The notes under the pieces are model-generated. The model saw nothing but the letters and a program-made list of their open reading frames with translations, was not told the DNA's origin and made no database searches. Both the position numbers and the translations under genes were made by a program. From Promethearchaeota archaeon (GTDB taxonomy: Archaea; Asgardarchaeota; Lokiarchaeia; Sigyniarchaeales; SOKP01), in the NCBI GenBank assembly GCA_019058245.1, contig JAHPZJ010000014.1:51085-115084 (forward strand): 64,000 bases of DNA, written 5' to 3'. Each line of letters starts with the position of its first letter. Within the stretch, counting starts at the first letter, position 1. Positions 17,848 through 51,086 of this stretch are shown here, piece after piece.

Positions 17848-17997
17848 ATACCACAAGGCAAACATTACGGCAAAGGCCAGAGAGAATGTAGAAGATGTCA
17901 TACTCATAGAGGAGTAATACGACGTTATGGATTATATATATGTAGACGATGTTTTTATGAAATTGGGAAAGATATTGGATTTAAAAGATTTGAATAA
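17848..17997 (+). CDS. rps14: 30S ribosomal protein uS14 (zinc-binding), probable ATA start; not in ORF track
   Basis: [48 protein letters not shown]; in-frame TGA at 17839-17841. Confidence 0.93.
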
Positions 17998-18024
17998 ATA
18001 TTAGAAAAAAGAGAGTGAATATCC

Positions 18025-18408
18025 ATGACAAATACCATAGCAGATGCATGTTGCGCCCTCAAAAATGCAGAAAGAGCACGCAAAAAGGAAGTTATAATTA
18101 GCCCTGCTTCTAAGGTCCTCCAACAGATTCTTCGAATATTCCAAAGACAAGCATATATTGGAGAATTCGAAAGATATGATGATGGAAGGCAAGGTAAATT
18201 TAAGATAGCATTATTAGGTAAAATGAATGAATGTTCAGGATTAATGAGACTAAATTATAAAGTATCTCAATTTGAAATGTTAGAAAGAAAATTATTACCC
18301 GCACCGGGATTAGGGATAATAATCCTCACCACAAATCAAGGTATAATGACAATGAGTGAGGCAGAAGAAAACCACATTGGTGGACATACTTTATGTTATA
18401 TTTATTAA
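18025..18408 (+). CDS. rps8: 30S ribosomal protein uS8
   Basis: YIGEFE, DDGRQG, LLPA, LTTNQGIM. Confidence 0.96.
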   Translation: MTNTIADACCALKNAERARKKEVIISPASKVLQQILRIFQRQAYIGEFERYDDGRQGKFKIALLGKMNECSGLMRLNYKVSQFEMLERKLLPAPGLGIIILTTNQGIMTMSEAEENHIGGHTLCYIY

Positions 18409-18430
18409 TCTATTACGAGGAAAATATCAA

Positions 18431-19009
18431 ATGGTAAAAATTGCGTTCTTCAAAGAAGAATTGGAAATCCCTGCTGATGTTAAAGTGACATTAGAAGGAG
18501 GACATCATATTCGAATTAAAGGTTCAAATGGTAATATAACAAAAGATTTCTCACATATTAGAGGTATAAAGGTTTCAGTTGAGAAAAATAAAATTATTTT
18601 TATAACTAACTTTCCCAAAAGTGGTACATTAGCTTTAATTAAAACTGTTGTCAGCATTATTAATAATTTAATTATCGGTGTTCAAACAAATTACAAATAC
18701 GTATCTAAAATTTGTTATTCACATTTTCCTTGTAATTGCGAAGTAAAATCTGATAAGAAAGAGATTCATGTAGTTAATTTCTTAGGAGAAAGAGCCCCTA
18801 GGAAAGCAAAATATCCTGATAATGTAAAAGTTGAAGTAAAGGGGGATGATGTATATTTTATTGGACCAGATAAAGAAGCATTAGGTCAAACAGCCGCTAA
18901 TGTTAAAAGAGCTTGTCGTATTCGGAAAAAAGATCCTCGAGTTTTTCAAGATGGTGTCTATTTATACAAAAAAATGATTGGAGATGAAACCATCTGGGAA
19001 ATCACCTAA
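18431..19009 (+). CDS. rpl6: 50S ribosomal protein uL6
   Basis: YSHFP, NFLGERAPR, KDPRVFQDGVY; ATG 18431 preferred to avoid overlap with uS8. Confidence 0.96.
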   Translation: MVKIAFFKEELEIPADVKVTLEGGHHIRIKGSNGNITKDFSHIRGIKVSVEKNKIIFITNFPKSGTLALIKTVVSIINNLIIGVQTNYKYVSKICYSHFPCNCEVKSDKKEIHVVNFLGERAPRKAKYPDNVKVEVKGDDVYFIGPDKEALGQTAANVKRACRIRKKDPRVFQDGVYLYKKMIGDETIWEIT

Positions 19010-19024
19010 AGTAAGGTAATTATT

Positions 19025-19546
19025 ATGATACAAGATAAAAGATTATTAGAACTGCGGAAAAAAATAAATAAAACACGACCTTCATTTCGACGGGTAGAAT
19101 CGTGGCGATATAAGAGAGTTAAAGATTCATGGCGGAAAGCTCGAGGCATTGACTCAAAAACAAGAAAAAAAAAGAAGTCCGGTGTTAAATCCCCCTCAGT
19201 TGGATATAGATCACCAAAGAAAGTAAGAGGTTTGCATCCTTCAGGGTATATAGAAGCAAGGATTATAACAATCCAAGATTTAGAAAATCTTAACAAAAAT
19301 AAACATGCTGTCAAAATCTCAAGTAAATTGGGTTCAAAAAAACGAATAGCCCTTATTGATTTTTGTCAAAAAAGGGGCTTTAAAGTATTAAATCTTGGTA
19401 TTTCTCAAAAAGAAATTGAGAGTTTAGAGGCACTCGCAGAAGCTCCTTTATATGAGGAGATGGAAGATGAAGAATTTTTAGATAATGATGATTTAGAAGA
19501 ATCTCTTGAAATAGATGATAAAAATGCCAAAAAAAAGAGGCGGTGA
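19025..19546 (+). CDS. rpl32e: 50S ribosomal protein eL32 with acidic C-terminal tail
   Basis: SWRKARGIDSK, GYRSPKKVRGLHPSG. Confidence 0.96.
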   Translation: MIQDKRLLELRKKINKTRPSFRRVESWRYKRVKDSWRKARGIDSKTRKKKKSGVKSPSVGYRSPKKVRGLHPSGYIEARIITIQDLENLNKNKHAVKISSKLGSKKRIALIDFCQKRGFKVLNLGISQKEIESLEALAEAPLYEEMEDEEFLDNDDLEESLEIDDKNAKKKRR

Positions 19547-19552
19547 TAATAA

Positions 19553-20014
19553 ATGAATTTAAAACCACAAAAAAGAATGGCAGCAGAACTTCTAAAATGC
19601 GGAGAGAATAGAGTTTATTTTGATCCTTATTTAATCGAAGATATTTCACTGGCAATAACTCGAGAAGATATTCGTAGTTTAATAAAGCAAGGTGTAATAC
19701 AGAAAAAATATGAAACAGGTATTTCAAATTACCGAAAAAATCAACGACATGAAAGGAAGAAGAAAGGAAGAGCTAGAGGATTAGGAAAGCGTAAAGGTAC
19801 AAAGTATGCAAGAACACCAAAAAAGAAAACCTGGATTAGACGAATACGTCCAATTAGACGAGAACTTAAAAAACTAAGGGACAGGAAATTAATTACTCCC
19901 GCTAATTATCGAAAATTATATAAGAATGCTAAAGGTGGAATGTTTAATAGTATTGCTCAGTTAAATCGATATATTCGAGAAAAAGAATTAATAAGAAGAG
20001 GAAGAGGTCGGTAG
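19553..20014 (+). CDS. rpl19e: 50S ribosomal protein eL19
   Basis: QKRMAAELLKCGENRV, GKRKG, YKNAKGGMF. Confidence 0.96.
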   Translation: MNLKPQKRMAAELLKCGENRVYFDPYLIEDISLAITREDIRSLIKQGVIQKKYETGISNYRKNQRHERKKKGRARGLGKRKGTKYARTPKKKTWIRRIRPIRRELKKLRDRKLITPANYRKLYKNAKGGMFNSIAQLNRYIREKELIRRGRGR

Positions 20015-20016
20015 AA

Positions 20017-20610
20017 ATGGCTAAAGGTCCAAGGTATAGAAGATCATTTCGAAGGCGTCATGAGGGTAAAACGGATTTTCATAAAAGATTAAAATTGTTG
20101 AAATCAAGAAAACTAAGAATAGTTATTCGAGCTTCAAATAATCATGTGAGAGTTCAACTAGTTCAGTCCAAATTAGGTGGGGATAAAATTTTAATCTCAG
20201 CATTTTCGAAAGAATTAACCTCTAAATATGGATGGAATGTAAACACAGGAAATATTCCAGCTGCTTATTTAACCGGATATTTAGCAGGATTAAGGGCGAA
20301 AAAGCAAAATATTCAGGAAGGTATCTTTGATTTAGGCGTTTTCTACCATCGAAATCGAGTACTTGCTGCTTGTAAAGGATTAATAGATGCTGGAATTAAT
20401 ATTCCATATCGTGAAGAATTTTTTCCAGAAAGTTTAGAAGAGCGAATTAAAGGAATTCATATTGAAGATTATGCCAAGACTCTAAAATCAAATGCGCCAG
20501 AAATTTATGAACAACTTTTCTCAGGATATCTAAACAAGAATAAAATAAATCCAATGAAAATAAGTCAAATGATTACAGATTCATCAAAAAAAATAGAAAA
20601 TCAAATTTAA
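20017..20610 (+). CDS. rpl18: 50S ribosomal protein uL18
   Basis: RRRHEGKTDF, NIPAAYLTGYLAG. Confidence 0.96.
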   Translation: MAKGPRYRRSFRRRHEGKTDFHKRLKLLKSRKLRIVIRASNNHVRVQLVQSKLGGDKILISAFSKELTSKYGWNVNTGNIPAAYLTGYLAGLRAKKQNIQEGIFDLGVFYHRNRVLAACKGLIDAGINIPYREEFFPESLEERIKGIHIEDYAKTLKSNAPEIYEQLFSGYLNKNKINPMKISQMITDSSKKIENQI

Positions 20611-20623
20611 AAATGTGAATTAA

Positions 20624-21238
20624 ATGAGTCGTTTAAGAAATATAGATGAAGAATGGACCCCAAAGACGCGTTTAGGCGAATTAGTTCAGCAAGGGCTCAT
20701 GACATTAGATAAAATTTTTCAAAATAATTTAGTTGTAAAAGAAAAAGAAATAATTAATATATTACTCCCACAACTCAAAGAAGATGTAATAACAATACGT
20801 ATGATACAAAAAATGACCGCTAGTGGCCAGCGTAGCAGATTTAAAGCGGTAGTCATTGTAGGATCTGATGGCTTTCTAGGAGTAGGTGCGTCTAAAAGTA
20901 AAGAAGTCGGACCAGCCATTAGAAAAGCAATTGATAAAGCTAAACTTTCTGTTATTCCAATACTTAGAGGTTGTGGAAGTAAAGAATGTGGATGTGGAGG
21001 AACACATAGTATACCTTTTAAAATTAGAGGCAAATGTGGTTCAGTGAGAATCCAATTAATACCAGCACCTGCAGGAGTAGGACTAGCTTGTGCGGATAAA
21101 GTAAAACAAGTTCTAAAATTATGCGGAATTGAAGATGTGTGGAGTAAAACGTATGGTGATACAAGGACGAGTGAGAATCTAGTTAAAGCTACCTTTGATG
21201 CACTAAAAAATGCTCATAAATTTAACTTCAATATATAA
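20624..21238 (+). CDS. rps5: 30S ribosomal protein uS5
   Basis: WTPKTRLG, GQRSRFKAVV, GKCGSVR, PAPAGVGL. Confidence 0.96.
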   Translation: MSRLRNIDEEWTPKTRLGELVQQGLMTLDKIFQNNLVVKEKEIINILLPQLKEDVITIRMIQKMTASGQRSRFKAVVIVGSDGFLGVGASKSKEVGPAIRKAIDKAKLSVIPILRGCGSKECGCGGTHSIPFKIRGKCGSVRIQLIPAPAGVGLACADKVKQVLKLCGIEDVWSKTYGDTRTSENLVKATFDALKNAHKFNFNI

Positions 21239-21255
21239 AATAGAGTGGTGTAGGA

Positions 21256-21780
21256 ATGGCTATGGCAAAAAAAAAATCAAAATTGAAGGAAACAAATCTT
21301 ACTCCAAAATTATATTTTGCAGTCCGTATTAGAGGTGCTCCTGGTATGAGGAGAAAAATATTGGATACATTAAAGATTCTTAGAATGCATAAAGTCAATC
21401 ATGGGGTATTAATTTGGGGTACTCCTTCCTATAAAGGTATGCTTACAAAGTGTAAAGATTATATTGCTTATGGAGTAATTGATGAGAAGACTTTAGTAAG
21501 GTTACTAAGAGTTAGAGGAAGAGTAGAAGGTAACAAGATGCTTACTGAAGAATACATTAAGAAATTAACTGACTATAAAAGCTTTAAGGAATTAGCTAAA
21601 GCACTACTTAACGGAGAAATACAATATCGAGAAAAATATATCTATAAAATTAAACCAGTATTCCGATTGCATCCCCCAAGAAAAGGACATAGAGGTACTA
21701 TTAAGAAACATTACAATGAAGGAGGATCACTAGGGAATGTTGGTCTATATATAAATGAAATAATCTACAAAATGCTCTAA
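21256..21780 (+). CDS. rpl30: 50S ribosomal protein uL30
   Basis: AVRIRG, KPVFRLHPPRKG. Confidence 0.95.
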   Translation: MAMAKKKSKLKETNLTPKLYFAVRIRGAPGMRRKILDTLKILRMHKVNHGVLIWGTPSYKGMLTKCKDYIAYGVIDEKTLVRLLRVRGRVEGNKMLTEEYIKKLTDYKSFKELAKALLNGEIQYREKYIYKIKPVFRLHPPRKGHRGTIKKHYNEGGSLGNVGLYINEIIYKML

Positions 21781-21797
21781 CCTGAAGGTGAATTATT

Positions 21798-22280
21798 ATT
21801 ACACGAAAATATCCTAAAAAAGTTCGAAGTATGAGAGGAAGACGTACTCACGGGTATGGGAGAGTAGGCCAGCATAGAAAAACTGGACAACGTGCGGGAA
21901 GAGGAAAAACTACTCAATGGAAAAAAAGTAAAAAGACCTATTATTTAAAACAAAAAGAACTAGGGTTTCCAGATCCTGATTGGGATTTTGGAAAGAAGGG
22001 TTTTAAAAGACCGCAAGATATACTCCGAATTTATAAAGTTAATACAATAAATGTAAAAGACTTAGACCAAAAGATTGATAATCTCCTCATTGATAATAAA
22101 GCTACGAAATCTGGTAATACTTATAGCATCAATATGGATGAAATTAATATTCAGAAACTATTAGGAAAAGGAGAAATTCATAAAGTAGTCAATGTAACCG
22201 TAAATAACGCATCGCAAAAAGCTGTTGAAAAAATAGAAGCTGCTGGTGGCAAAATTACACTACTTTCTCAAACAGAATAA
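21798..22280 (+). CDS. rpl15: 50S ribosomal protein uL15, probable ATT start
   Basis: TRKYPKKVRSMRGRRTHGYG, KLLGKG, AVEKIEAAGG; in-frame TGA at 21789-21791. Confidence 0.93.
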   Translation: MTRKYPKKVRSMRGRRTHGYGRVGQHRKTGQRAGRGKTTQWKKSKKTYYLKQKELGFPDPDWDFGKKGFKRPQDILRIYKVNTINVKDLDQKIDNLLIDNKATKSGNTYSINMDEINIQKLLGKGEIHKVVNVTVNNASQKAVEKIEAAGGKITLLSQTE

Positions 22281-22351
22281 AAAATTATAGATTTTTCATA
22301 ACTAATTCTTACCTAATTATATTTTTCAATCTAAACCTCAGAGAAAATGCA

Positions 22352-22489
22352 ATGGATGTTGAAGATTTAAATCTTAATGAACAAGAAGATGAGAGAAGAA
22401 AAAGAAAAATATGTCTATTAATTTGTTTAATAGTATTATTAGTTATGATGCTACCATCAACAATAGCCTTTCTAACTATTTTTAAATAA
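22352..22489 (+). CDS. 45-aa tail-anchored membrane microprotein; not in ORF track
   Basis: MDVEDLNLNEQEDERRKRKICLLICLIVLLVMMLPSTIAFLTIFK. Confidence 0.5.
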   Translation: MDVEDLNLNEQEDERRKRKICLLICLIVLLVMMLPSTIAFLTIFK

Positions 22490-22499
22490 TGAGTTTGAT

Positions 22500-23144
22500 T
22501 TAATAGAGCATCTTTTTTATTAACTGGATTAACCCCGGTAATATAAAGATAAATCCTAATGTATTTCCAATAATATGAACGACAGTGAATATTAAGCCAG
22601 TCATTAAATAAGGTACATATTCATCAAGTGTACCAAAATAAGATAAAACTTCTACTAAAGCAGATAAGAATTGAAAACTCGAAGTAATAAGTGCCCCTAT
22701 AACACCAAATAATGTCATAACTGAGGGTTTATACAAATCATCATTAAATTCGAATACTCTTCTCTTCTTGAAAAGAATACCTATTATGCCTCCAACCAAA
22801 CCTGTAATTGAATAGTGTGTTAATTGAAACGCAAAAAGTGGTAAAGGAGATGCCCCTAAAGGATTAAAAAAACAGAAAGTAAATGAACTTAAAAATCCCG
22901 TTATCATACCATCTCTTTTGCCAAGAATAAAACCTGCCAAAAATATAGTTAAGGTAAATAATTCGATATTGGGAATATATGCTAATAGATAACCTAAAAC
23001 TATTGCTAATGCTGTAAAAGTACTAATTAAGGCTATTCGAAATGACCTTTTTTCCAACCATATGGAATAATTTGCTCTCTCTTGCTCAGTATCAAGTATC
23101 TCCAATTTGTCACTAGATCTTTTTACTTCTGATTTTGTTGCCAA
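22500..23144 (-). CDS. ECF transporter S-component (CbrT-like)
   Basis: IPNIE motif in loop 1, about six TM helices, HIIGN. Confidence 0.7.
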   Translation of the reverse strand: MATKSEVKRSSDKLEILDTEQERANYSIWLEKRSFRIALISTFTALAIVLGYLLAYIPNIELFTLTIFLAGFILGKRDGMITGFLSSFTFCFFNPLGASPLPLFAFQLTHYSITGLVGGIIGILFKKRRVFEFNDDLYKPSVMTLFGVIGALITSSFQFLSALVEVLSYFGTLDEYVPYLMTGLIFTVVHIIGNTLGFIFILPGLIQLIKKMLY

Positions 23145-23211
23145 TCTTATTCAATCTTATAAAAATATTTTTGGGATAATTTTTTATAATCAAACATGTT
23201 TTTTAAATATA

Positions 23212-23405
23212 TAGGTTAAGTTTCCTACAGAGCATATGACCTCTACTCTTTAAAAAATGAGAGTAGAAAGGGTAGATTTTTTAATGCTTAATAGCATTGA
23301 AGAAGTCTATATTAAATATATCAGATTAAAAAAGAAATCGTAATATTAAAAAATGAGTTAAGATTATTTTTTATAGGATAAGTTTCCTAGGTAACTTATC
23401 CTATA
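23212..23405. promoter_or_regulatory. Three TAGG-N8-CCTA boxes (putative operator array) in a divergent promoter
   Basis: Boxes at 23212-23227, 23374-23389 and 23388-23403; the last two form a 34-bp near-perfect palindrome 23372-23405. Confidence 0.6.
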
Positions 23406-23450
23406 TTTATTAATAAAAAAAAATAAAAACTCAAAATATATCGATTTTCA

Positions 23451-25235
23451 ATGAAAAACATAAAAAAAATAGCATACTTCTTTGGTGCTTTAATATTTGT
23501 ACAATTATTTTATTCTGGATCTATTCCAATAGTCAAAGCTCAAGGTGAAAGTTCGAATTCTTACTTTCAAGATCTTGACTATACTAAACCCTATGTCTAC
23601 GAAGTAATACAATTTGGGGACTCAGCTGGATGGTACAATTTCTCTGCATGGCCTAATTCTTTTGAAGGAAATTGGAAATCTAACGCTAGTGGTCAAATCC
23701 GAATAAATTTCAATGGCTTCTATGATAAAGATCCAAATGATTGGGGAAATATTTTTGGAGATCCAATTCCTTGGTATGACATAGAAATTTACGAGAATAG
23801 TCTTGGTACTCTCAACTTGAATTTCACTTTAAGTAATAGATCTAATAGTGAAGTTGCCAGAGCATTAACTTTAGGTTACAATAATTTTCAGCCCGGATTT
23901 TTAATACCAAATGGGAATTTAACAAATGTGAAAGAATTAGCTTTGAATCAATCAGATCCGGGAGGACTATATGATATTGTAGGAGATATAGATATTGAAG
24001 AATCATACAATTTCCTCTATATTGATTTTGAGCAAAATGATGGGGGTCAAAAAACCTCATTGATTTATGATAGATTTAGTGGATTACTCGTCTGGGCAAA
24101 AACCAATATTTTTGGATACTTACTTGAAATTAATTCACTAAACTTTACAATAGAAGATAGCCTTATTTATAATGTCATCAAATTTAGTGGAGATACAGGT
24201 TGGTATAATTTAACAGGAGGTTTTGAAGGAGATTGGAGTACCAATTCTGGAGGCCAAATTATTGCTAATTTAACTGGATATTATAGTAAGGATCCCAATG
24301 ATTGGGGTAATGTAATAGATGATCCTATACCGTGGTTTAACGTGGAAATAATAGAGAATGAGACTGGTATTTTAACAACAAATTTTACAATAGCAAATAG
24401 ATCCAATAGTGAGTTAGGATGGACTTTTATTCTAGGATATAATTTCTTCCAACCGGGGTTTATTCTACATATTATTGATAATTTGACAAGAGTTAAGAAA
24501 TTAGCAATAAAGGAATCATCAGGATTTGCAAATGGCTTAGTTTTAATTTCAGAAACACCATTGACGATGAAAATTGCATTTGAGCAAACAGATGGAAATG
24601 GAGACCAAGAGACAAGCATGATTTACGAAAAACGGACGGGAGTATTACTTTGGGCATATACATCAATAGGAGATTACTCACTTGAAATAAAATTAGATGA
24701 TTATATTCCCTGGGAATCAACGGAAACAGATACTCGTCCAGGTCTGAATTTTTTTTTAGATATTTTTCCTTATATTCTTGTCGCTTTAATTAGTATTCTT
24801 ATAATTACCACGTCTCTTATAGCCTCAAGATTCAAGACAGACCTAAAGAAATATAATAAATATATATTAGTTGCTGTAATAGCTGTAGCCAGTTTTACCT
24901 CATTTTTCATTTTTTCTTCTAGTATAAAAATTAGCGAAGAAAATGAACCGTTAAGAGAAGTTAATGATTTAATTCTAATTGTGGATTATGGAAATGGAAC
25001 TGAAACAACTTGGGAATCTTTTGATTTAACAAATTATAACACAACGGCATTTGATGCTTTATCTAGATGGTGTAAGGTTGAAATAACTGATTATGGTGAA
25101 AGGGGCATTATTGTAGAAAGTATTAATGGGCTTAAAAAAGGCTGGCTTTATACCGTTAATGATATATCTCCAGGAGTATCTGCTGAAAAATACAATTTAA
25201 AGGATGGAGATATTGTTAAATGGACCTGTAACTAA
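23451..25235 (+). CDS. Membrane-anchored surface protein with two tandem repeat domains and a C-terminal DUF4430 (transcobalamin C-terminal-like) domain
   Basis: Signal peptide; duplicated GWYN..FEG.W..N..GQI..DPNDWGN..DPIPW unit; VDYGNG..TAFDAL..VESING..GWLYTVN..LKDGDIVKW. Confidence 0.7.
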   Translation: MKNIKKIAYFFGALIFVQLFYSGSIPIVKAQGESSNSYFQDLDYTKPYVYEVIQFGDSAGWYNFSAWPNSFEGNWKSNASGQIRINFNGFYDKDPNDWGNIFGDPIPWYDIEIYENSLGTLNLNFTLSNRSNSEVARALTLGYNNFQPGFLIPNGNLTNVKELALNQSDPGGLYDIVGDIDIEESYNFLYIDFEQNDGGQKTSLIYDRFSGLLVWAKTNIFGYLLEINSLNFTIEDSLIYNVIKFSGDTGWYNLTGGFEGDWSTNSGGQIIANLTGYYSKDPNDWGNVIDDPIPWFNVEIIENETGILTTNFTIANRSNSELGWTFILGYNFFQPGFILHIIDNLTRVKKLAIKESSGFANGLVLISETPLTMKIAFEQTDGNGDQETSMIYEKRTGVLLWAYTSIGDYSLEIKLDDYIPWESTETDTRPGLNFFLDIFPYILVALISILIITTSLIASRFKTDLKKYNKYILVAVIAVASFTSFFIFSSSIKISEENEPLREVNDLILIVDYGNGTETTWESFDLTNYNTTAFDALSRWCKVEITDYGERGIIVESINGLKKGWLYTVNDISPGVSAEKYNLKDGDIVKWTCN

Positions 25236-25301
25236 AAATAAACTCTTTTTTCTTTACTTTTTTTTTTAAATTAATTTAAAACCAGAGAACAAGTAAAAAT
25301 A

Positions 25302-25745
25302 TCAATAGGTCATATCTTTTGTCTCAATTTTCTGTAAGACAGGTTCCATTTCTTTGAAAGCTTTTCGAATCTTATGGAAATAGTAGCCCAATTTATAGCC
25401 TTTTTTGCAATTTGTAAATAACATAAAATTATTTTCAGCTGACCCTACAAGAATAATAGTATATCCTTTGGTTCCTCGAATCACAATATCCCTTAATTCA
25501 CCTTGTTGTAAACCCTGACTAATCTTCTCTCCTAACGAAATTAATGTTGCGGGACTAGCACTGTAAATATCCCATACAACATCAGCAGTTTCAGAACTTG
25601 CAATTCTTAGACCTGTTTTTGAAACAACAGCAGTTCCTTCTAAATCAGTTGAAGCTTCTAAATTTTCTAAATTACGCATCAATTCATCCAGGATATCCTG
25701 GCTGATGTTAATTTCAGATTCTTTTGCTTGACCTATTTTAAACAC
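25302..25745 (-). CDS. Roadblock/LC7 domain protein
   Basis: LEGTAVVSKTGLRIAS...GELRDIVIRGTKGYTII; start GTG 25745 or ATA 25736. Confidence 0.8.
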   Translation of the reverse strand: MFKIGQAKESEINISQDILDELMRNLENLEASTDLEGTAVVSKTGLRIASSETADVVWDIYSASPATLISLGEKISQGLQQGELRDIVIRGTKGYTIILVGSAENNFMLFTNCKKGYKLGYYFHKIRKAFKEMEPVLQKIETKDMTY

Positions 25746-25776
25746 CTCTGTTAAGATAATATTAATTTTTGAGAAT

Positions 25777-28403: not shown

Positions 28404-28406
28404 TAA

Positions 28407-41043: not shown

Positions 41044-41128
41044 ATAAAATAATAAAATTAATATTTTTTTAGTAATTTAAATCCATAGAAACTTAATATT
41101 CAATACAGAAAAAAAAAAGGTAATATCA

Positions 41129-41398
41129 ATTCCACGTCCCGGCTTACGATCAAAAGCTCAAGCAAGAAAAAAATTGAGTACTCCAGGGAATAAAAATGTT
41201 ACTCATTACTGGAGAAAAAAACCTGAAAGAGCAAAATGTGCAATTTGCAAGAAGCCACTACAGTCAGTTCCAAGATTAAGACCTTCTAAAATGGTAAAAA
41301 CGCAAAAAACAGCAAGAAGAGCAAATAGAGTGGAAAGTGGAAGGTATTGTGCAAAATGTCTCCAAACCTTGATAAAAGAAGAAATTTGGAGTCAGTAA
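41129..41398 (+). CDS. rpl34e: 50S ribosomal protein eL34, probable ATT start
   Basis: PRPGLRSKAQARKKLSTPG...CAICKKPL...YCAKC. Confidence 0.92.
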   Translation: MPRPGLRSKAQARKKLSTPGNKNVTHYWRKKPERAKCAICKKPLQSVPRLRPSKMVKTQKTARRANRVESGRYCAKCLQTLIKEEIWSQ

Positions 41399-42455: not shown

Positions 42456-42586
42456 GCAACGGTTGCCTAGCCCGGTACGGCGCCGGCTTGGAGATAAATT
42501 CTTCCCAAAAAGCCGGTGTGGGTATCCACTCGGGGGTTCGAGCTATGAGGAAATTCTTCTTATAGGAATAAATCCCTCCCGTTGCG
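42456..42586 (+). tRNA. tRNA-Ser (GGA) with two BHB introns (42494-42510 at 37/38; 42542-42571 at 58/59)
   Basis: Acceptor GCAACGG/CCGTTGC, G73, CCGGC-TTGGAG|A-GCCGG, variable arm GTGG-GTAT-CCAC. Confidence 0.9.
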
Positions 42587-42613
42587 TTTTTCTATTTGTA
42601 TATCCGAAAAATC

Positions 42614-43219
42614 TTACACGTCCGGAAATTCCAAAGCTTTTGCTTTTTGTCCCGCAAACATGCCGCCCATTCCTCCAGAAGCTTGAGATTGAATCTTCAA
42701 TAATCTTTGAATAAACGTATTGATTCCCAATGAACATAAAAAATACCATGCTGTAAAATTAATCCAAATTTTTCCCGCACTTATAAGACCTCCAATAAGA
42801 GGAATATCGTTTGCATGCATCGGAGAAAGTGCCACCGGATGTCTCCCAAAAACAACCGAGTTCAAAATTCCAAAAATTATTATCATTGGAAGAAACGTTA
42901 CACAAGAAGGCTTTAATCTTTGAAGTGACATCCGTTGCTGGGTTTTCTTGACCATAATATCTTTACGTTCCCATCTTTTTCGAGCTTTTCTATATCGTTC
43001 AGGGTCGGTCTCTGCTAAATCAATTATCTTTTGTTTTTCTTCGTCATGTGCTTTGATTAATGCTTGTTTACGGTTAGTTTCTTCTGTGTCAACTAACCAT
43101 TTGGTTAAAAATGTGCTAATTAGTGCAGTTGCTGTAGATAGCAGTAATACAAATAGCATTGAACCAGGGGGCGTTCCTATCAAATTCACAAAGTCATTTT
43201 CAAAAAATAAAGATAACAT
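42614..43219 (-). CDS. EMC3/TMCO1/DUF106 (Oxa1 superfamily) insertase
   Basis: TM1-coiled coil-LKPSCVTFLP-TM2, WYFLCS motif; follows secY. Confidence 0.85.
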   Translation of the reverse strand: MLSLFFENDFVNLIGTPPGSMLFVLLLSTATALISTFLTKWLVDTEETNRKQALIKAHDEEKQKIIDLAETDPERYRKARKRWERKDIMVKKTQQRMSLQRLKPSCVTFLPMIIIFGILNSVVFGRHPVALSPMHANDIPLIGGLISAGKIWINFTAWYFLCSLGINTFIQRLLKIQSQASGGMGGMFAGQKAKALEFPDV

Positions 43220-43390
43220 CTCTATCTGTATTTATATTGGAATTATTATAAAGTTTTCATAATATAGGCTATTCTTCTTGAAATGGAGAGTAATTAATTA
43301 ATATGGATTTATCACTCTTTTTAATCATAGTTATTATTGTATCTAGAATATTCTTATCAAATTAATCAGTAATAAGTATAAAGATGTTAA

Positions 43391-44881
43391 TTAATCCATG
43401 CCAAGCAATGCACGCATGCCAGGATACTGACTCGCAGCTAACTCCTTCGATATCGTCTCTGCATAATTATGGATTATCCCTATAGCGATCAAAAGCCCCG
43501 TACCTGAAGTCAATGCACCTAATGAATCTGCCGAGAAACTTAAGATTGCGATAATTATTCCGTTGAGAATAACTAAAGTAGGGATGTACCGCTTAAGAAT
43601 TCGCTCGATGATTTTGGATGAGCTCCTAAACCCAGGAACCTGCATTTTCGAATCTAATATTTGCTGAGCTATATCTCTCGGTGCAAGACCCGAGACTTCG
43701 ACCCAGACACGACCGAGTACTATACAAAGGTATATAAATATAACAAGATATATCAGTGCTTTCGCTGGGTAATCAATTAACTGCTGATATCCCAATGGTG
43801 GAGTCAGTAACCAAACCAAACCCCCATAAGGCACTAATTGATTTCCTTGACCTCCACCTCCGGCTGATACAGAATGAAATTTCCCTATTAAATCAACCCA
43901 AAAATCAGGGACGCCCCACGAACGTAACCAACCCGATGGTCCAGCCAATAATTGCCCAAAAAATAAAATGTTCGCATATAATGCATTAACTAAAATAACC
44001 GGTATATTGGAAACATACAGGAGTTTCATTGGATATTTTCCCTTAAAACCTCGATAGCCTCGATATGCAAGTGGGATCTCAACGCGCGTAGATTCGAACC
44101 ATATTACTAATAAAAAGATAACTATAGTGGAAATTATGCCTAAAAGTGAGGGCAACCGTGATCCCCGTAAAAAAAGCCCTCCTACATTCGTCCTAGAATC
44201 TCCATCAAATATGGCAGTAAAAAATGCGATAACAATTCCTCTGGGAAGATAGACATTCGGAATACCTTCAACCTGAGTGGGAGCAAAACTAAAACAGTTC
44301 CAAAATATTTGACCAGCAACTCCTGCCGCGATAAATAGAGAAACTCCACTCCCTAATCCCCATCCTTTTTGAAGAACCTCATCTAAGAGAATAATAACTA
44401 TTCCTGCAAATAATAACTGGAAAAAAATAAAAAATGCATTATCTAATCCTAATTCGTTCGCCTTACCAAAAGCCCCTCCTATAATATAGGAAACTGCATT
44501 AAAGATTGTCAAAAAAACCGACATAACCTTTTGTGCTCCACTAAACATAGCTCTATCGTACGGATCAGACATATTTACATTTATTAACTTTGATCCCATA
44601 AGCAATTGCATGATAAGACCCGCTGTGACTATTGGTCCTATCCCTAATTCTGTTAAAGTGCCTCTCTGACTTGCTAGAATAACTCGAAGCCAATAAAAGT
44701 AATCTGTTGATTGTGCTAGATTTACTCCATATAAAGGAATATTACTCATTATCAAATAAATAATAAGGACAACAGCAGTCCAAATAAATTTCTCCTTAAA
44801 AGAAACCTCACGCTGTGGTTGTTTAATTTCGGGCATTACTTTTACAAAAGGGGTAAAGAACCTAAGAAATTTACCAGCCAT
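43391..44881 (-). CDS. secY: Preprotein translocase SecY/Sec61alpha
   Basis: RGTLTELGIGPIVTAGLIMQLL, KGWGLGSGVSLFIA, YPMKLLYVSNIPVIL, SGTGLLIA. Confidence 0.97.
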   Translation of the reverse strand: MAGKFLRFFTPFVKVMPEIKQPQREVSFKEKFIWTAVVLIIYLIMSNIPLYGVNLAQSTDYFYWLRVILASQRGTLTELGIGPIVTAGLIMQLLMGSKLINVNMSDPYDRAMFSGAQKVMSVFLTIFNAVSYIIGGAFGKANELGLDNAFFIFFQLLFAGIVIILLDEVLQKGWGLGSGVSLFIAAGVAGQIFWNCFSFAPTQVEGIPNVYLPRGIVIAFFTAIFDGDSRTNVGGLFLRGSRLPSLLGIISTIVIFLLVIWFESTRVEIPLAYRGYRGFKGKYPMKLLYVSNIPVILVNALYANILFFGQLLAGPSGWLRSWGVPDFWVDLIGKFHSVSAGGGGQGNQLVPYGGLVWLLTPPLGYQQLIDYPAKALIYLVIFIYLCIVLGRVWVEVSGLAPRDIAQQILDSKMQVPGFRSSSKIIERILKRYIPTLVILNGIIIAILSFSADSLGALTSGTGLLIAIGIIHNYAETISKELAASQYPGMRALLGMD

Positions 44882-45251
44882 AGTTTATCAATAGTGTGAG
44901 TCAATTAAATAATTTGTATAAGTTGATTATTTCAACTTCTTAACTTTTGAATGTAATATAAAAAAAATGGAATTTAAAAAAAAGTTTGCGATTTGACTTG
45001 ATCTTTACTTTGATAATAATTTACAAATTTGAAGCAGAATTAGACAATGGATTGGAAAAAAAGAAAATAAAAAAAATTTAATTCTTTTTAATTAAAAACT
45101 AAAAGTAATTGAATAATATTATAAAGATTTTATATAATCTTAAAATAGTATTATAATCCTTTTCTAGTGTTTTTATCTTTTTTTATTGTTTTTTAATTAT
45201 TTGTAAATTGCTTTTGTGGGTATCTCACTCTCACTTTTATAAAATATAAGA

Positions 45252-45542
45252 TTAAAAGAGACTTCCGATGCCAGTTGGCTCTTCTTCTTCGGTTTCTTCT
45301 TCTTTCTTTGTTTCTGCCTTTTTATCCTCAACAACTCCGCCAGTTGGGGCAGCGGCTACTGGTATTGCACTCGCAGATTGTATAATATCCTCTATATTTG
45401 TCTCCTTTAATCCTGCAATAAGTTTTGCAATTTCCGATTTATCAACCTTCGCACCTGCTGCGTTTAATACTTTTTCTACATTTGATTCGTTAACTTTACC
45501 TCCAGCTTTGTGAAGTAATAAAGCGGCATAGATACTTTCCAT
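45252..45542 (-). CDS. rpl12: Ribosomal stalk protein P1 (aL12)
   Basis: MESIYAALLLH, acidic hinge, GIGSLF C-terminus. Confidence 0.95.
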   Translation of the reverse strand: MESIYAALLLHKAGGKVNESNVEKVLNAAGAKVDKSEIAKLIAGLKETNIEDIIQSASAIPVAAAPTGGVVEDKKAETKKEEETEEEEPTGIGSLF

Positions 45543-45610
45543 ATTTTATAACCTCTTTTTTTATAATTTTATATGTAATTTTAATTGAAATTTAAAATAA
45601 TCTTGATTTA

Positions 45611-46504
45611 TTATCCAAATAATCCTCCAATACCTACACTTTCAGATTCTTCTTCCTCTTCTGGTTCTTGTTCTTCAACTTTAGCCTTTTCGTCGTGAGG
45701 TGGAATTTGAATTCCTTCTCCAAAAATAATAACATTCAATATAGTGGCCTCAGAAGCAGCTTTTCGAATATAATCTTCCGTCATATCCTCTAGGAAAAAA
45801 GGCATCTCGAATAAAATCCCTAATGCTTCTCTATAAGCTTTAGTAACATTTTGTGTAAATTGTTCCATATCCATATACAAAATATCTTCTGGGATAATCT
45901 CACCATCACTCCATGCAAAATGGATCTTAATCAACGATTCTATTGGAGTTATTCCTAGTTTTTTCAAAACTGCTGCTTGTTTCACATCAACCAAATCGCC
46001 TGCTTTATGTGTTCTTGTATCTTCACGAATATATATTGTATCATTCATTATTCTGGTAGGTAACCGTAAAGTCATGTTCAATTCACTTATAACCTGTCCC
46101 GTAGGCAATCCCGTATCTCCTGCGGGAACCCATATATCTACTGGAGTGATTTCATTTGGTTTCGCGGGAACCATCCACTCATTTTCAAGAAAAATATTCT
46201 TCAATTCGAATAAATCGATGTTAGTGAACACAAGACTAGATTGACCGGGGATTTGCTCTGCGAATTCATCTAAATTTTTCTTTTTAGATTCTTTTTTAAA
46301 TTGTTCTATTGCTCGTTGTTGAAGTGATCTTTTTGACATTCGAAATTCTGCTTTCCCTCTTAAAATCTTTCTCATCGTCTGGATTTGCTTATCACTTATA
46401 TGAGCAACTTCAATTACGACAACATTCTTATAATTCTTAAATAAATCAATTAAGTAATTGATTTCATTAATTTTCCATTGTGGGATATGTTTATTTTCAA
46501 TCAT
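45611..46504 (-). CDS. rpl10: Ribosomal stalk protein uL10 (P0)
   Basis: IPQWK, QIQTMRKILRG, VPAGDTG, LKKLGITP, GIGGLFG. Confidence 0.95.
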   Translation of the reverse strand: MIENKHIPQWKINEINYLIDLFKNYKNVVVIEVAHISDKQIQTMRKILRGKAEFRMSKRSLQQRAIEQFKKESKKKNLDEFAEQIPGQSSLVFTNIDLFELKNIFLENEWMVPAKPNEITPVDIWVPAGDTGLPTGQVISELNMTLRLPTRIMNDTIYIREDTRTHKAGDLVDVKQAAVLKKLGITPIESLIKIHFAWSDGEIIPEDILYMDMEQFTQNVTKAYREALGILFEMPFFLEDMTEDYIRKAASEATILNVIIFGEGIQIPPHDEKAKVEEQEPEEEEESESVGIGGLFG

Positions 46505-46508
46505 GTTT

Positions 46509-47237
46509 TCACACCTTGATACTTTTTAGGAACTCTTCTTGTACTTTCACAGGTTTTCCCATTGTTGATTTAAGATACATGGATTTAAAATTATTGAATT
46601 TATGGGGCATCTGATCGGCGATAAAATCTATTACTGTTTTCATATTTTCATATAACTTTTCCTGTTCCATAGATTTTTTACCTATCTTAATAAAAATAAT
46701 CGGTTGCTTTTTCATCTGAACGCGAATTACCTTTCTATAACGCTCGCTAGCTACTTTTAAATCTTCAGAACTAGAAATGATTCCATAACCTGTAGGGAAA
46801 GGTTTTGGCATTTTACCAACAGGTCCAAGGAACCTTGCTAAATACCTCGCAACGTCCCTCATCATTTTATCTTCAACAACAAAGTAGTCATATTTTTTAG
46901 CAAATTTTTTCTTGAATTTCTTCTCCTCATTGTTTAAACTTATCAGTCCAGTTGAATCCAGCGTATCCAATCCAAGTTTTTTTGCTTCGAGCAATATTTC
47001 ATCTGATGCAATCACGCAAATATTCGGGTTATTCCCTGTAATCACATCATGAGATAAAATAATTTCTTTATCTATTCTATTTTTTGGATCATTTAGATTA
47101 ATGTCTTTAATATTTATAATAAGGTCAATAGATTCATCAAATTTCCTTGATTTATCTTTAAAGCCTTCCTTTTTAATTATGGAAAAATCGAGTGCAGCAT
47201 TTAATGACTTTTTTAATAATTTATCATCTACTTTCAA
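46509..47237 (-). CDS. rpl1: 50S ribosomal protein uL1
   Basis: RKFDESIDL, LGPVGKMP, YLKSTMGKP. Confidence 0.95.
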   Translation of the reverse strand: MKVDDKLLKKSLNAALDFSIIKKEGFKDKSRKFDESIDLIINIKDINLNDPKNRIDKEIILSHDVITGNNPNICVIASDEILLEAKKLGLDTLDSTGLISLNNEEKKFKKKFAKKYDYFVVEDKMMRDVARYLARFLGPVGKMPKPFPTGYGIISSSEDLKVASERYRKVIRVQMKKQPIIFIKIGKKSMEQEKLYENMKTVIDFIADQMPHKFNNFKSMYLKSTMGKPVKVQEEFLKSIKV

Positions 47238-47243
47238 GTTTTA

Positions 47244-47738
47244 TTACTCACCCCTTATCTTTTCGTCATATTCCCCATTTTGAACTCTTTTTTGAATGAC
47301 TCTGGGATCTTCTCCTTCAACAGTCAACCCTACAGATAATGCTGTACCCAAAACTGTTTTTATCGCTGCTTTATAGGTTTTATCCAAAAATTTCTCTCTT
47401 TTTGCGTCAACTACATTCTGGATTTGGTCTAAAGTTACATTTCCAATTTTTTGTTCAGAAACACTAGAACTACCCTTTTCAACCCCTAATTCTTTAAGCA
47501 AAAGTGATGCGGTAGAAGGGGTTTCAATATATATTTCAAATTGCTTTGTCTCTGGATCACATTCAATTCTCACTGGAACCGTCAAACCTTTGAATACTGC
47601 TGTTTGTGTGTTAATCTCATCGACAACATCTTTTATATTTATGCCTGTTGGTCCGACGGCAGGACCAATTGGAGGCCCCCCACTTGCACTTCCTCCAGTT
47701 ACCAATGCTTTTACGATAATTTTTCCCTTTTCACTCAT
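47244..47738 (-). CDS. rpl11: 50S ribosomal protein uL11
   Basis: GGSASGGPPIGPAVGP, PSTASLL, VLGTALSVG. Confidence 0.96.
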   Translation of the reverse strand: MSEKGKIIVKALVTGGSASGGPPIGPAVGPTGINIKDVVDEINTQTAVFKGLTVPVRIECDPETKQFEIYIETPSTASLLLKELGVEKGSSSVSEQKIGNVTLDQIQNVVDAKREKFLDKTYKAAIKTVLGTALSVGLTVEGEDPRVIQKRVQNGEYDEKIRGE

Positions 47739-48065
47739 TTCATTTCAGTTTTCAAATTAATCTTAAATTCAATGCTGATTTATAAAGGATTAGGAACGTA
47801 AAAATGAATATTTTCATCATTTTTTCATTTCAATATCTTAAATTTATTATATTGAAACCGTTGTATTATTACGTCCTAAGTCCTCTAAAAAATATTTGAA
47901 CTTAGTAATTTTGTAGAATGAAAGAACGTTAAAAAATTTTGCTAAAAATAAGAATAGAATAATAACTGCGATATTATTTAAGTGTATTAACATTATTCTG
48001 GTTTCATAAATCCTCAAAAAGTTGGTCAAAGATACTTTCTGAATTTAGGTTGCTATTTGAAATAA

Positions 48066-49154
48066 TTAAAGGAAAAAATCCTGTACTATTTTTTCAATTG
48101 GTCGAAAAACTTTTAAATCGCCTTCCCAATTTTGTAAAAGATTGTAATAAATACCTTCTATTTTTTCAATTAAATTACTTAATATAACCTGAAGAGAATT
48201 TAACTTCTCCTTGCTTATTATTACACCATAGATAAAATCTCCTGGCTGAATAATAATGTATTTTCCTTTTTTCTCAATAATAGAAGTCTCTTTCTCTCCA
48301 CTAATTTGTTCAAGCATCATTCTTAAACTTGTCATTACTCCCGAAACAGAAGAGCTATAAGGAATTTGTTTCTCTTCTATAAAAGATTTTTCATAAATTA
48401 ATAATCCTGATTTATGCATAATAAAAAGGCTTTCAACCTTCTTTTGCCAATTATATTCTGAAAATGAAGGAGTAGATAAAAAAAAGGAATATAAGAAAAA
48501 TAATGCAATGATTTGTAAAAAATCTCCTACAATTCGAGAGATTAATCCGAATAAATTAAGTATAATATCCGTTGTTAGAAAAAATCCAGAAATTAGAGTT
48601 GTCATTCCCACTACAAATTGAATATATCTATATTTGAATTTCCCCAATATTGGATTTGATTTAAAGATTGAATTCAATTCTAAAGTATAAAAAATAAAAA
48701 ATACAATAAAAATAGGCCAAAACGTTAATGATATTACCTGTCCATATTGAAAATCATACAATATTATTATAAAAAACAAAATAATATCTGAAATGAAAAT
48801 TATGGTAAACAGATATCTTTTTATTAATACTGTATAGCTTTCGATAGTATAAATAAATAATATTACTCCTAAGATCATGGAGATGTAGCCACAATTTAAA
48901 TAGATTATCCTCAATTCAGAAGATATAACGTAATGATCTCCTATTATAAAAAATATCCACATAAATGAAAAACCTAAATATAGGTATACATATCCCCTCT
49001 CTTGAAGACTTTTTAATTCGTTTTTAAATTTAAAAACTCGCCCTAAGAAGATAATAGCAAACTCAAAATAGAGTAGCACTATTATCCATTCAGTTATCAA
49101 TGCTAGTTCTGCCATAGATCCTATTAATGGAAAATTTATTTCTTCAAATATCAT
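48066..49154 (-). CDS. 7-TM membrane protein with C-terminal longin-like domain
   Basis: Seven hydrophobic segments, then EYNWQKKVESLFIMHKSGLLIY...SGVMTSL...WEGDLKVF. Confidence 0.65.
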   Translation of the reverse strand: MIFEEINFPLIGSMAELALITEWIIVLLYFEFAIIFLGRVFKFKNELKSLQERGYVYLYLGFSFMWIFFIIGDHYVISSELRIIYLNCGYISMILGVILFIYTIESYTVLIKRYLFTIIFISDIILFFIIILYDFQYGQVISLTFWPIFIVFFIFYTLELNSIFKSNPILGKFKYRYIQFVVGMTTLISGFFLTTDIILNLFGLISRIVGDFLQIIALFFLYSFFLSTPSFSEYNWQKKVESLFIMHKSGLLIYEKSFIEEKQIPYSSSVSGVMTSLRMMLEQISGEKETSIIEKKGKYIIIQPGDFIYGVIISKEKLNSLQVILSNLIEKIEGIYYNLLQNWEGDLKVFRPIEKIVQDFFL

Positions 49155-49170
49155 GAAAAAATCTTAAATT

Positions 49171-50319
49171 TTAATTTGTATTAAGTAATATTTTAATTTC
49201 ATTGTTAAAATCTAAAAATATTTGACTCTCTTTACCCTCAATTGCTTTTAAATCAAGTATTATATTTCTATACAATTCAGTAAATCTCTCCCTTATTAGT
49301 TTTATAAAATATTTGATACTTATCATTTCCTTTTTTACCAAAATACAAAACATAAGAAAAGTTAAATCTCCCCCTCCATAATTTAACAATATCAAATTCT
49401 CACCTTGTTTGATTTTTTCTATCTTGAATTCTTTTGATTCCGTAACTCTTGAAATAATGTTATCTATTCCAATAATCCCATCAGGGAAGAGCATCTTATA
49501 TTCACTTGAAACATTAAAATCCTTCTTCATTTCCAAGTGTTCCTTATTGTTTTTAATAAAATTATATTGAAATATAACTTGAGATTTATCTGAGTTGATA
49601 ATATAAAGACTCAATAATTTTTCTTGCCAATTAAACTCTAAAAAGAGGGGGATACCAAAAATAGCATAAAATACGATAAATTGTCCTAAAATAATTATTG
49701 GACAATAAACTAATGCAATTATCATTTGTTGTGTGACAGTAAAGAAGTAAGGATTTTTCTCAGCACCGATTATTATCATTATTACAATTATACTTTCACC
49801 TATAAGCAGTAAGATTAATTTATTTCTGATAATTCCAGTTGAATTTTTTAATAATTTTAGATGAAAGAACAACATATACAACCCTCCAATAAAAACAGAT
49901 ACTATTACAAGAATTCCTACAATTGTGATGTTATTAATAATTAATATAAAAAGAGAAATTGTAAATGTAAACACACAAACTAGTTTTGTTATCTTCGTGT
50001 TAATTAAATCATTAAAATCTTTTTGAGATATTATCGCTAAAAATGAAAATGTAGCAATGAATATTAAAATATGTGAAGTTGTTAGATTAAAATTTGATAG
50101 TATTGGATTATCAACATAATAACTATTAATTGTGCGAATCACTATTCCTGTAAAACCAAATCCGTACAATGATCCGAAAGCTAATAAAAATTTATTAATT
50201 CCTAATTCTTCATCTTTAATTCGGAAATATCTATAAAAAAAATATATACTTATCTGATACCCAAGTATTAAAATAATATAGATAAATGGATAATGAAATT
50301 CTTTTAAATCAATTGCCAT
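49171..50319 (-). CDS. 7-TM membrane protein with C-terminal longin-like domain (paralogue)
   Basis: Seven hydrophobic segments, then EFNWQEKLLSLYII...GIIGIDNII...IRERFTELY. Confidence 0.62.
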   Translation of the reverse strand: MAIDLKEFHYPFIYIILILGYQISIYFFYRYFRIKDEELGINKFLLAFGSLYGFGFTGIVIRTINSYYVDNPILSNFNLTTSHILIFIATFSFLAIISQKDFNDLINTKITKLVCVFTFTISLFILIINNITIVGILVIVSVFIGGLYMLFFHLKLLKNSTGIIRNKLILLLIGESIIVIMIIIGAEKNPYFFTVTQQMIIALVYCPIIILGQFIVFYAIFGIPLFLEFNWQEKLLSLYIINSDKSQVIFQYNFIKNNKEHLEMKKDFNVSSEYKMLFPDGIIGIDNIISRVTESKEFKIEKIKQGENLILLNYGGGDLTFLMFCILVKKEMISIKYFIKLIRERFTELYRNIILDLKAIEGKESQIFLDFNNEIKILLNTN

Positions 50320-50540
50320 TGGGTATTATTAGTTTTTGAATATAATAAATGTTTATTGTATTGTTGTTCTCATAAAAAATGTTATTATTGGGTATAATTT
50401 ACATTAGGTATTATTATGCGAGTGTAATTCATGCCTTACAGAATTTTATTATCTTTAATAAAAGTTTAAAAAAAAAAATCGCTTATAATTAATATTAACT
50501 TTTTAAAAGAAATTTTAGCATTCCTAACAGGGGAAAAAGG

Positions 50541-51086
50541 ATTTCATTTGATTTTACATATAAGATAGGTGTTTTTGGCGATTCTGGTGTTGGAAAAACA
50601 ACACTAATTCATCGGTATATCACAGATAAGTTTAATTTAGACATTGGGAGGTCAATGGGAGTCAATGTGAATGCTAAAACCATAGACATAGAAGGTTTTG
50701 TAGTAAATTTACAAATATGGGATTTTGTAGGTGAGCAACGCTTCAAAACTCTATTGCCTATCTATGCTCGAGGGACTTTTGGAGGAATTTTTATGTACGA
50801 TATTTCTAATAAAAGTTCCCTCTTAAATTTAAATGAATGGATTCCACTTTTTCAAGATAAAGGAAAAAATCCCAATGATCAGATTCCAATTTTGATTGTT
50901 GGAGGTAAATCAGATTTGGATGCAGAAAGAAAGGTAAATCTTGATGATGCATATAGTTTATCAAATTCTTATGATATCCTCGAGTATATTGAATGTTCAT
51001 CAAAAACAGGTGAGAATGTGGAAAAAGTTTTTTCAACTTTAACAAAAGAGATTATAAAGAGATCAACATATTTATCTGCAACATAA
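50541..51086 (+). CDS. Rab/Ras-like small GTPase, probable ATT start (50541 or 50520)
   Basis: G1 GDSGVGKT is in frame upstream of the ORF-track ATG; WDFVGEQRF, VGGKSDL, ECSSKTG. Confidence 0.85.
   Translation: MSFDFTYKIGVFGDSGVGKTTLIHRYITDKFNLDIGRSMGVNVNAKTIDIEGFVVNLQIWDFVGEQRFKTLLPIYARGTFGGIFMYDISNKSSLLNLNEWIPLFQDKGKNPNDQIPILIVGGKSDLDAERKVNLDDAYSLSNSYDILEYIECSSKTGENVEKVFSTLTKEIIKRSTYLSAT

Follow-up and report, generated by a model that had tools for sequence, protein, structure and literature searches.

The 64,000-nucleotide (nt) window analysed here, a stretch of a Promethearchaeota archaeon genome (GenBank assembly GCA_019058245.1, contig JAHPZJ010000014.1, positions 51,085 to 115,084 of the forward strand), contains five conserved genes, encoding the ribosomal proteins uS14, uL15 and eL34, a Ras/Rab-like small GTPase and a roadblock/LC7 protein, which on comparative grounds almost certainly start at ATA or ATT. 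Such starts recur throughout the genome: almost certainly, no fewer than about 3% of its genes have as their start codon an ATA, ATT or ATC (collectively ATH) that lies some six bases behind a strong ribosome-binding site. The codons sit 5-7 nt behind GGTGA-like motifs and align with the ATG or TTG starts of relatives (20-78 related genomes). They are probably explained, at a probability that we put at roughly 0.8, by near-cognate AUH initiation that is carried out by the ordinary initiator Met-tRNA and assisted by the Shine-Dalgarno (SD) sequence. A first-pass annotation of the window had proposed ATH codons as recurrent starts of conserved genes, and this proposal is supported both by the orthologues at the five sites and by a genome-wide scan.

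The window's own assembly, G000, comprises 3.09 Mb at 29% GC and is 76% complete. Its relatives are metagenome-assembled genomes (MAGs) named Promethearchaeota or Promethearchaeia, i.e. Lokiarchaeia, and orthologues of each gene were collected from 24 further members of the genus and from 16 genomes belonging to three other families. Below, the canonical start codons ATG, GTG and TTG are abbreviated NTG, and f2 denotes another family of this order, for which single-contig genomes are available.

Start sites of five conserved genes

All five sites were read directly and are present in the sequence as first described; the SD spacings quoted for the ATG-initiated genes eL19, uL29, uS8 and eL32 are likewise correct, and the ATH genes share the same spacing. 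In uS14, uL15, eL34 and the GTPase, the stretch that runs from the upstream stop to the conserved N-terminus holds no canonical start, the roadblock gene being the exception. Leaderless initiation is not indicated at the five genes, all of which have an SD-like motif 5-6 nt upstream.

The reading frame of uS14 (zinc-type S14, 49 amino acids (aa), 17848..17997, + strand) is devoid of ATG, GTG and TTG throughout. Its assigned ATA start follows the SD sequence AGGTGA (17836..17841) after a spacer of 6 nt, and the TGA of this motif (17839-17841) is an in-frame stop two codons ahead of the start, so that no codon upstream of ATA 17848 can start uS14. The product scores 26.1 bits against Pfam Ribosomal_S14 (cut-off 27), public uS14 proteins read MPQGK, and NCBI and IMG hold 49-aa uS14 records for these organisms, one NCBI record already starting at ATT behind GGTGA. 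The aligned codon lies behind GGTGA in 23/23 genus genomes and is ATA in 13, ATT in eight and ATC in two, while in f2 it is ATG. The spacer differs in the 22 other genus genomes (AAGAAG, AATACG, AGAGGT and others), with the in-frame TGA and the ATH codon retained. An indel in the run of six A residues (A6) that might restore an NTG start, which the first-pass annotation had considered for uS14, is thereby refuted, as TGA-N6-ATH is kept in 22 relatives while the spacer sequence varies. A mini open reading frame (ORF) of ATG TTT AGG TGA (17830-17841, + strand) overlaps the uS14 SD and has the TGA of this motif as its stop; not being conserved among relatives, it is probably fortuitous.

The uL15 gene (160 aa, 21798..22280, + strand; Pfam Ribosomal_L27A) has its ATT start 6 nt behind the SD sequence AGGTGA (21786..21791), which contains an in-frame TGA at 21789. 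Its first NTG, ATG 21831, lies 11 codons downstream, and starting there would lose 11 conserved residues. Most genus genomes have the same arrangement of GGTGA, six bases, ATT and ACA, and the ATT aligns with the ATG of orthologues in other families that begin M-T-R-K/N. Of 78 species-level relatives, 32 start at ATT, nine at an ATG in the same position, and 37 at an ATG one codon further downstream. In the last group, the former ATT position varies freely and is a stop in three species; in all 32 species that use it the ATT is invariant, while the codon before it varies widely.

For eL34 (89 aa, 41129..41398, + strand; Pfam Ribosomal_L34e), the ATT start is separated by 5 nt from an SD-like GGTAA (41119..41123, within AAGGTAAT), with an in-frame stop at 41078 and the first NTG, a TTG, 15 codons downstream of the ATT. 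The aligned codon is ATH in 21/23 genus genomes (ATT 19, ATC 2), the others having GTT and ATG; the one genome with ATG has no SD, and the other families have ATG at this codon. The GTT occurs in G022, behind GGTGTAAT. Exact GGTGA sites in G000 also show ACG (3), CTG (3) and GTT (3), and near-cognate codons beyond ATH may occasionally be used as starts.

The frame of the GTPase (181 aa, 50541..51086, + strand) has a stop at 50496 and no NTG ahead of the P-loop, leaving ATT at 50520 or at 50541, both of which had been offered as candidates. In each of the five true orthologues, a GGGGA or GAGGGA is followed after six bases by an ATH codon (ATT, ATC, ATT, ATA and ATA), corresponding to the SD-like GGGGA (50530..50534) that precedes ATT 50541 by 6 nt. 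One orthologue has a TAA two codons upstream of its aligned ATC, which fixes the start at 50541 and eliminates 50520. The Pfam Ras profile begins at residue 8 of the resulting protein.

The roadblock/LC7 gene (144 aa, 25302..25736, - strand; Pfam Robl_LC7) has an ATA at 25736 that lies 6 nt behind the SD sequence GAGGTG (25743..25748, - strand). This SD itself contains an in-frame GTG at 25745, which the first-pass annotation did not mention. A stop intervenes between SD and aligned start codon in five genus genomes, so the SD-internal GTG is not the start of the roadblock gene. Across the genus the aligned start codon is TTG in 16 genomes, ATG in one and ATA in four, and the suggested start at ATA 25736, aligning with the TTG or ATG of relatives, is thus upheld.

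Genome-wide association of ATH starts with strong SD sequences

The genome-wide set consisted of 2,687 long, non-overlapping ORFs, in which in-frame codons were tallied from the upstream stop to the first canonical codon, and four AT-rich codons of equal commonness served as the control for ATH. Unambiguous ATG starts display a G-G-T-G-A signal ending at -7. In frame behind an exact GGTGA with a spacer of 5-7, the tally gave ATA 25, ATG 21, TTG 16, ATT 14, ATC 6 and GTG 4, as compared with 2 for the four control codons together. When only codons upstream of the first NTG at a spacer of 6-7 are counted, ATH occurs 42 times and the controls twice. The enrichment is specific to spacing and frame: other spacers behind GGTGA have 53 ATH and 77 control codons (Fisher p = 2e-11), and out-of-frame positions have 5 and 33 (Fisher p = 3e-15). 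With contiguous matches of at least 5 to the anti-SD complement, 97 ATH codons were observed against 21 expected, along with 131 ATG, 47 TTG and 11 GTG. The ATH excess of ~76 genes corresponds to ~29% of strong-SD starts and to 2.8% of long ORFs, the latter being a lower bound, as short genes and imperfect SDs are left out of the count. An estimate independent of the SD, based on 200 orthologous gene pairs between G000 and a second member of the genus, puts the proportion at 3-5%: conserved coding sequence extends upstream of all NTG codons clearly in 6 cases and probably in another 4.

Many of the ATH sites yield textbook N-termini, including those of IscU, uS10, uL16, aIF5A, eL21, Rossmann folds and response regulators, among others. 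For example, the NifU_N profile (from its position 2) begins at the codon directly after an ATA, and the next NTG would cut into the L16 and S10 domains. The third bases of the excess ATH codons (A:T:C of 0.44:0.43:0.13) are close to the genomic shares (0.42:0.42:0.17), and ATG is ~tenfold above the prediction from base composition and ~tenfold over ATC. SD strength and codon strength trade off: ATG makes up 24% of starts behind an exact GGTGA, but where an SD is absent it accounts for 69% of first NTGs (p = 7e-17). Most genes are SD-less, 1,628/1,859 first-ATG sites lacking even a GGT at the right place; a review that covers a Lokiarchaeote also describes SDs as not prevalent (PMC7531240).

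The genes with ATH starts are mostly first in their units, with a leader of their own, and have no obvious common function. An upstream ORF on the same strand is found within 25 nt of just 14% of strong-SD ATH sites (median distance 262 nt), as compared with 38% of strong-SD ATG sites. Strong-SD ATG genes cluster at operon junctions and strong-SD ATH genes mostly stand alone.

Several other scans were tried and set aside. A raw count of triplets behind all genomic GGTGA contained no start signal, being swamped by in-frame GGT-GAN inside genes, and the tally was limited to the 5' ends of ORFs. Codon-usage log-odds upstream of the first NTG were unusable, separating coding from 'intergenic' sequence with a sensitivity of 15% at 1% false positives. 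A plain tblastn criterion, by which the alignment begins upstream of the first NTG, over-called (52-60 hits per 200 pairs, of which 6-10 pairs held after inspection), because upstream DNA is often conserved as the coding sequence or antisense shadow of the previous gene. A calcium-binding-type surface protein on contig C1 of G000 (+ strand, 197-491, outside the window) has tandem repeats (...DGYITDP.DDDSD.DGL.DGYE...), each with an in-frame GGTGAAGAAGTT ATA; as the repeats carry in-frame GGTGA, they produce false ATH-start hits in automated scans.

Two further loci of G000 outside the window have in-frame stops. On contig C15 (+ strand, ~8300-8360), a TAA that is also present in G006 separates two stretches that are conserved at the protein level (...LAKF.. 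before the stop and ..RNHFVVYGLPAIA... after it), and downstream of this TAA the G006 copy offers neither an ATH nor an NTG candidate; stop read-through, an unusual start and two tightly coupled genes are possibilities. On contig C23 (+ strand, ~13280), a response-regulator-like gene has an in-frame TGA and its G006 orthologue extends upstream to an ATG (MKNTILIVDDEP...); the G000 gene may be truncated or a pseudogene.

Proposed mechanism of initiation and alternative explanations

In the proposed mechanism, the ordinary initiator Met-tRNA (anticodon CAU) would read AUA, AUU and AUC with the first two bases paired and the third mismatched. The (A)GGTGA(T) motif would pair with the 16S rRNA 3' end ...GGAUCACCUCC to form a duplex ending 5-7 nt (mostly 6) ahead of the codon, and this strong duplex would retain the near-cognate triplet in the P site until the fidelity check by aIF1 has been passed. 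The 6-nt spacer places the TGA of GGTGA in frame as a stop, so that no upstream start is possible. The codons themselves would be maintained by a mutation-selection balance, in which AT pressure converts ATG to ATH and the mutated codon is retained wherever a strong SD makes up for it. The drift of the third base with composition and the ~tenfold preponderance of ATG over ATC fit such tolerated drift under AT pressure, and not a preference for ATH. The position, conservation, spacing and frame specificity of the codons, their orthology to Met starts and the canonical anticodon arm of the initiator tRNA are observed; we infer the reading tRNA, the first residue (Met or Ile), the efficiency of initiation and the role of aIF1. 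The genus has the usual 16S 3' end (...GGATCACCTCC), and ATH starts favour the start-proximal (A)GGTGA(T) register, while for ATG starts the match can fall anywhere in the anti-SD complement. The first-pass annotation had spoken of relaxed AUN initiation, which captures the genome-wide recurrence of ATH starts but not their restriction, as they reflect no general laxity and are confined to strong, start-proximal SDs of the (A)GGTGA(T) type.

Some observations weigh against SD-assisted near-cognate initiation under AT pressure as a full account. The SDs of eL34 (GGTAA) and the GTPase (GGGGA) are imperfect, each with one mismatch, and SD strength is hence only part of the explanation. In a few genes, coding sequence seems to extend upstream of any NTG although a clear SD or a clear ATH is lacking. 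Genomes of f2 with similar GC carry ATG at four of the orthologous window genes, so that AT pressure alone fails to explain which genes carry ATH. Lastly, uL15 and aIF1 hold to ATT instead of any ATH, which hints at selection beyond tolerance.

An initiator tRNA gene was found in four genomes of the genus (G019, G011, G009 and G022); it was located through the gene of a relative, two pattern searches having given none, and was not found in G000, G006, G023 or G024. It has A1:U72 and the anticodon arm CAGGG-CTCATAA-CCCTG, which is identical in f2 and in the GC-rich family f4, and an altered initiator anticodon is excluded. The Rfam tRNA model detects 17 tRNA genes in G000 and 24 in the complete 3.3-Mb G006, and the range with ARAGORN and Rfam is 17-24 per genome. 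Many of the detected tRNA genes carry one or two insertions and measure 100-140 nt; in initiator tRNA genes the insertions are in the D-loop (G032 and G025) or in the T-arm or variable region (G011, G009, G022 and G037). A candidate tRNA with A1:U72 on contig C27 was rejected, being similar to archaeal tRNA-Gln and falling below the Rfam tRNA threshold on re-scanning.

A canonical anticodon could still read AUN as cognate if C34 were modified in the manner of f5C34 in mitochondrial tRNA-Met, or if a second initiator tRNA existed. Variation almost only at the third position, as in mitochondrial AUN starts, and the use of ATH by highly expressed ribosomal protein genes would suit this explanation, and most tRNA genes of the lineage escape detection, leaving room for a second initiator. 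We consider it improbable, given that the anticodon arm is canonical in four genus genomes and the same as in a GC-rich family with no ATH excess, that ATH starts depend on a perfect, well-spaced SD as cognate reading should not, and that ATG is still over-represented relative to ATC. Termination-reinitiation, in which ribosomes that have just terminated would accept ATH with relaxed stringency, draws on the proximity of uS14 and uL15 to the stop of the preceding ribosomal protein gene (19 and 17 nt), and could contribute at these two genes. It is very unlikely to be the general explanation, since ATH starts are not concentrated at operon junctions, as the proportions of 14% and 38% given above indicate, and since long intergenic regions rich in AT precede both eL34 and the GTPase.

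Still less credence can be given to two explanations that deny the ATH codons their function. If the true starts were downstream ATG or TTG codons or the SD-internal GTG, the ATH codons and the conserved residues behind them would belong to an untranslated leader. NTG codons that could serve do exist for uL15 (ATG 21831, the Met of a conserved MRGRRT), eL34 (TTG) and roadblock (GTG 25745), but uS14 has none, the GTPase would lose its P-loop, and the roadblock GTG is divided from the start by a stop in five relatives; moreover, the residues upstream of the NTG codons are conserved at the protein level, with substitutions mainly at third positions, and the aligned ATH stays constant amid variable neighbouring codons, making downstream starts highly unlikely. 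Sequencing or assembly error, programmed slippage or editing of the RNA to AUG is the least probable of all. The A6 between the uS14 SD and its ATA, where the loss of one A would bring the SD-internal GTG into frame, speaks for error or slippage, against which stand the divergent uS14 spacers of 22 genus genomes with their TGA and ATH kept, and the like behaviour of other genes in independent MAGs from several projects; editing would need three different base changes to G. With independent MAGs from several studies in agreement, it is very unlikely that the ATH codons are assembly artefacts. SD-assisted reading of AUH by the ordinary initiator thus remains the preferred explanation.

The fidelity factor itself offers a regulatory alternative, and the only hint of the regulatory role that the first-pass annotation had considered possible. 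In all 20/20 readable genus genomes, the aIF1 gene has no NTG ahead of its zinc knuckle and starts at ATT; the start is ATA in two f2 genera (G030 and G037), and ATG, GTG or TTG at the aligned M-P-K codon in other relatives. With the aIF1 of Sulfolobus solfataricus, the 30S subunit binds AUG but not AUU mRNA, and in bacteria infC, which encodes IF3, autoregulates through its AUU start (PMC4705826). By analogy, it is plausible that aIF1 regulates itself and governs a wider 'stringency regulon': aIF1, rejecting non-AUG codons and translated from an AUU mRNA, would set its own level and adjust the output of the 3-5% of genes that start at ATH, among them those for ribosomal proteins. The autoregulation of infC in bacteria and of eIF1 in eukaryotes would then have an archaeal equivalent. 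The invariance of ATT in uL15 (32 species) and in aIF1, with no drift between A, T and C, argues for such control, as does the position of ATH genes at the head of their units. The case rests on relatives, the aIF1 gene not having been found in G000 (a 76% complete assembly); the aIF1 SD is non-canonical, with GTGA 9 nt from the ATT; the third base of ATH overall mirrors composition, as tolerated drift predicts; and the ATH genes share no obvious function. We therefore regard an aIF1-governed regulon as a tentative proposal, with odds well short of even, and its extension to AT-rich Lokiarchaeia as a whole, in which an AUU-started aIF1 and several per cent of genes would form an aIF1-set regulon that is a prokaryotic forerunner of eIF1-type control, as a little more doubtful.

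Taxonomic extent, implications and known systems

An ATH excess is also present in AT-rich f2 genomes (G032, 22 against 6.9 expected, p = 0.001; G038, 8 against 0.6, p = 0.002), where the candidates are on inspection fewer and less clean than in the window's genus. The same controlled test detected no ATH excess in a sample of the GC-rich (53%) f4 genome G033. Among the genomes compared, the pattern is best explained as a lineage-wide habit of AT-rich Lokiarchaeia, and the wider 'Asgard' scope originally suggested is too broad, the excess being found in two AT-rich Lokiarchaeial families and not in the sample from the GC-rich one.

Gene finders of the Prodigal type, limited to NTG, accept only ATG, GTG and TTG. 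Applied to these MAGs, such finders would miss uS14, a completeness marker gene, would shorten uL15, eL34 and the GTPase, and would deprive several per cent of the proteins of a first strand or P-loop, affecting structure prediction and expression constructs. The anticipated failure of gene callers is accordingly real for NTG-only programs, but does not extend to homology-aware annotation, which already calls uS14 from ATT; the NCBI record indicates that such pipelines cope with well-known genes. In terms of mechanism, an archaeal system that contains aIF1 appears to accept AUH routinely when given a strong, well-placed SD, and the ATH start of aIF1 itself makes the setting of stringency testable in the closest lineage to eukaryotes.

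A start of this class had already been repaired by hand in a Lokiarchaeial (Kariarchaeaceae) MAG, where a 'rare ATT start codon' was assumed for the tubulin gene atubA (PMC13394414). As in the window genes, the upstream ATT, at a plausible distance from a ribosome-binding site, restores the N-terminus, in this case the first beta strand; the case differs in being a remark on one gene in the Methods, described as rare and given without genome-wide or phylogenetic analysis (PMC13394414). A literature search found no paper treating ATH starts as a systematic habit.

Variation confined to the third base is shared with mitochondria. Mitochondrial AUN starts (AUA, AUU or AUC) are read by a tRNA-Met with a modified C34. 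They involve no SD and need the tRNA modification, whereas the Lokiarchaeial starts combine strict SD dependence with a canonical anticodon arm. In eukaryotes, eIF1 autoregulation acts via an AUG in poor context. As eIF1 and aIF1 are homologues, the start of the stringency factor itself would be weak in both cases, through a weakened AUG context met during scanning for eIF1 and through a near-cognate codon picked by the SD for aIF1; autoregulation of eIF1 in eukaryotes is among the subjects covered in PMC3326321. E. coli infC resembles the aIF1 gene of the genus in that the factor that rejects non-AUG starts is itself encoded behind an AUU, although the aIF1 fold is unrelated to that of IF3, and autoregulation, known for infC, would be for aIF1 a matter of analogy. 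An AUU start is also listed for E. coli pcnB (Binns and Masters 2002, as cited in PMC13009471).

Among the systems described so far, that of Staphylococcus aureus comes closest, in which infC, cvfC1, ccpN and citZ have AUA or AUU starts behind extended, start-proximal SDs, at 10-30% of the efficiency of AUG (PMC13009471). Common to both systems are the conservation of AUA or AUU among relatives, the strong SD at proper spacing, and the inclusion of the gene for a fidelity factor. The S. aureus starts occur in a bacterial setting with IF3 and fMet-tRNA, concern four genes, and were studied by ribosome profiling and reporters. By contrast, the Lokiarchaeial starts belong to an archaeal system with aIF1 and aIF2, involve at least about 76 genes, including those for ribosomal proteins, and are supported by comparative evidence.

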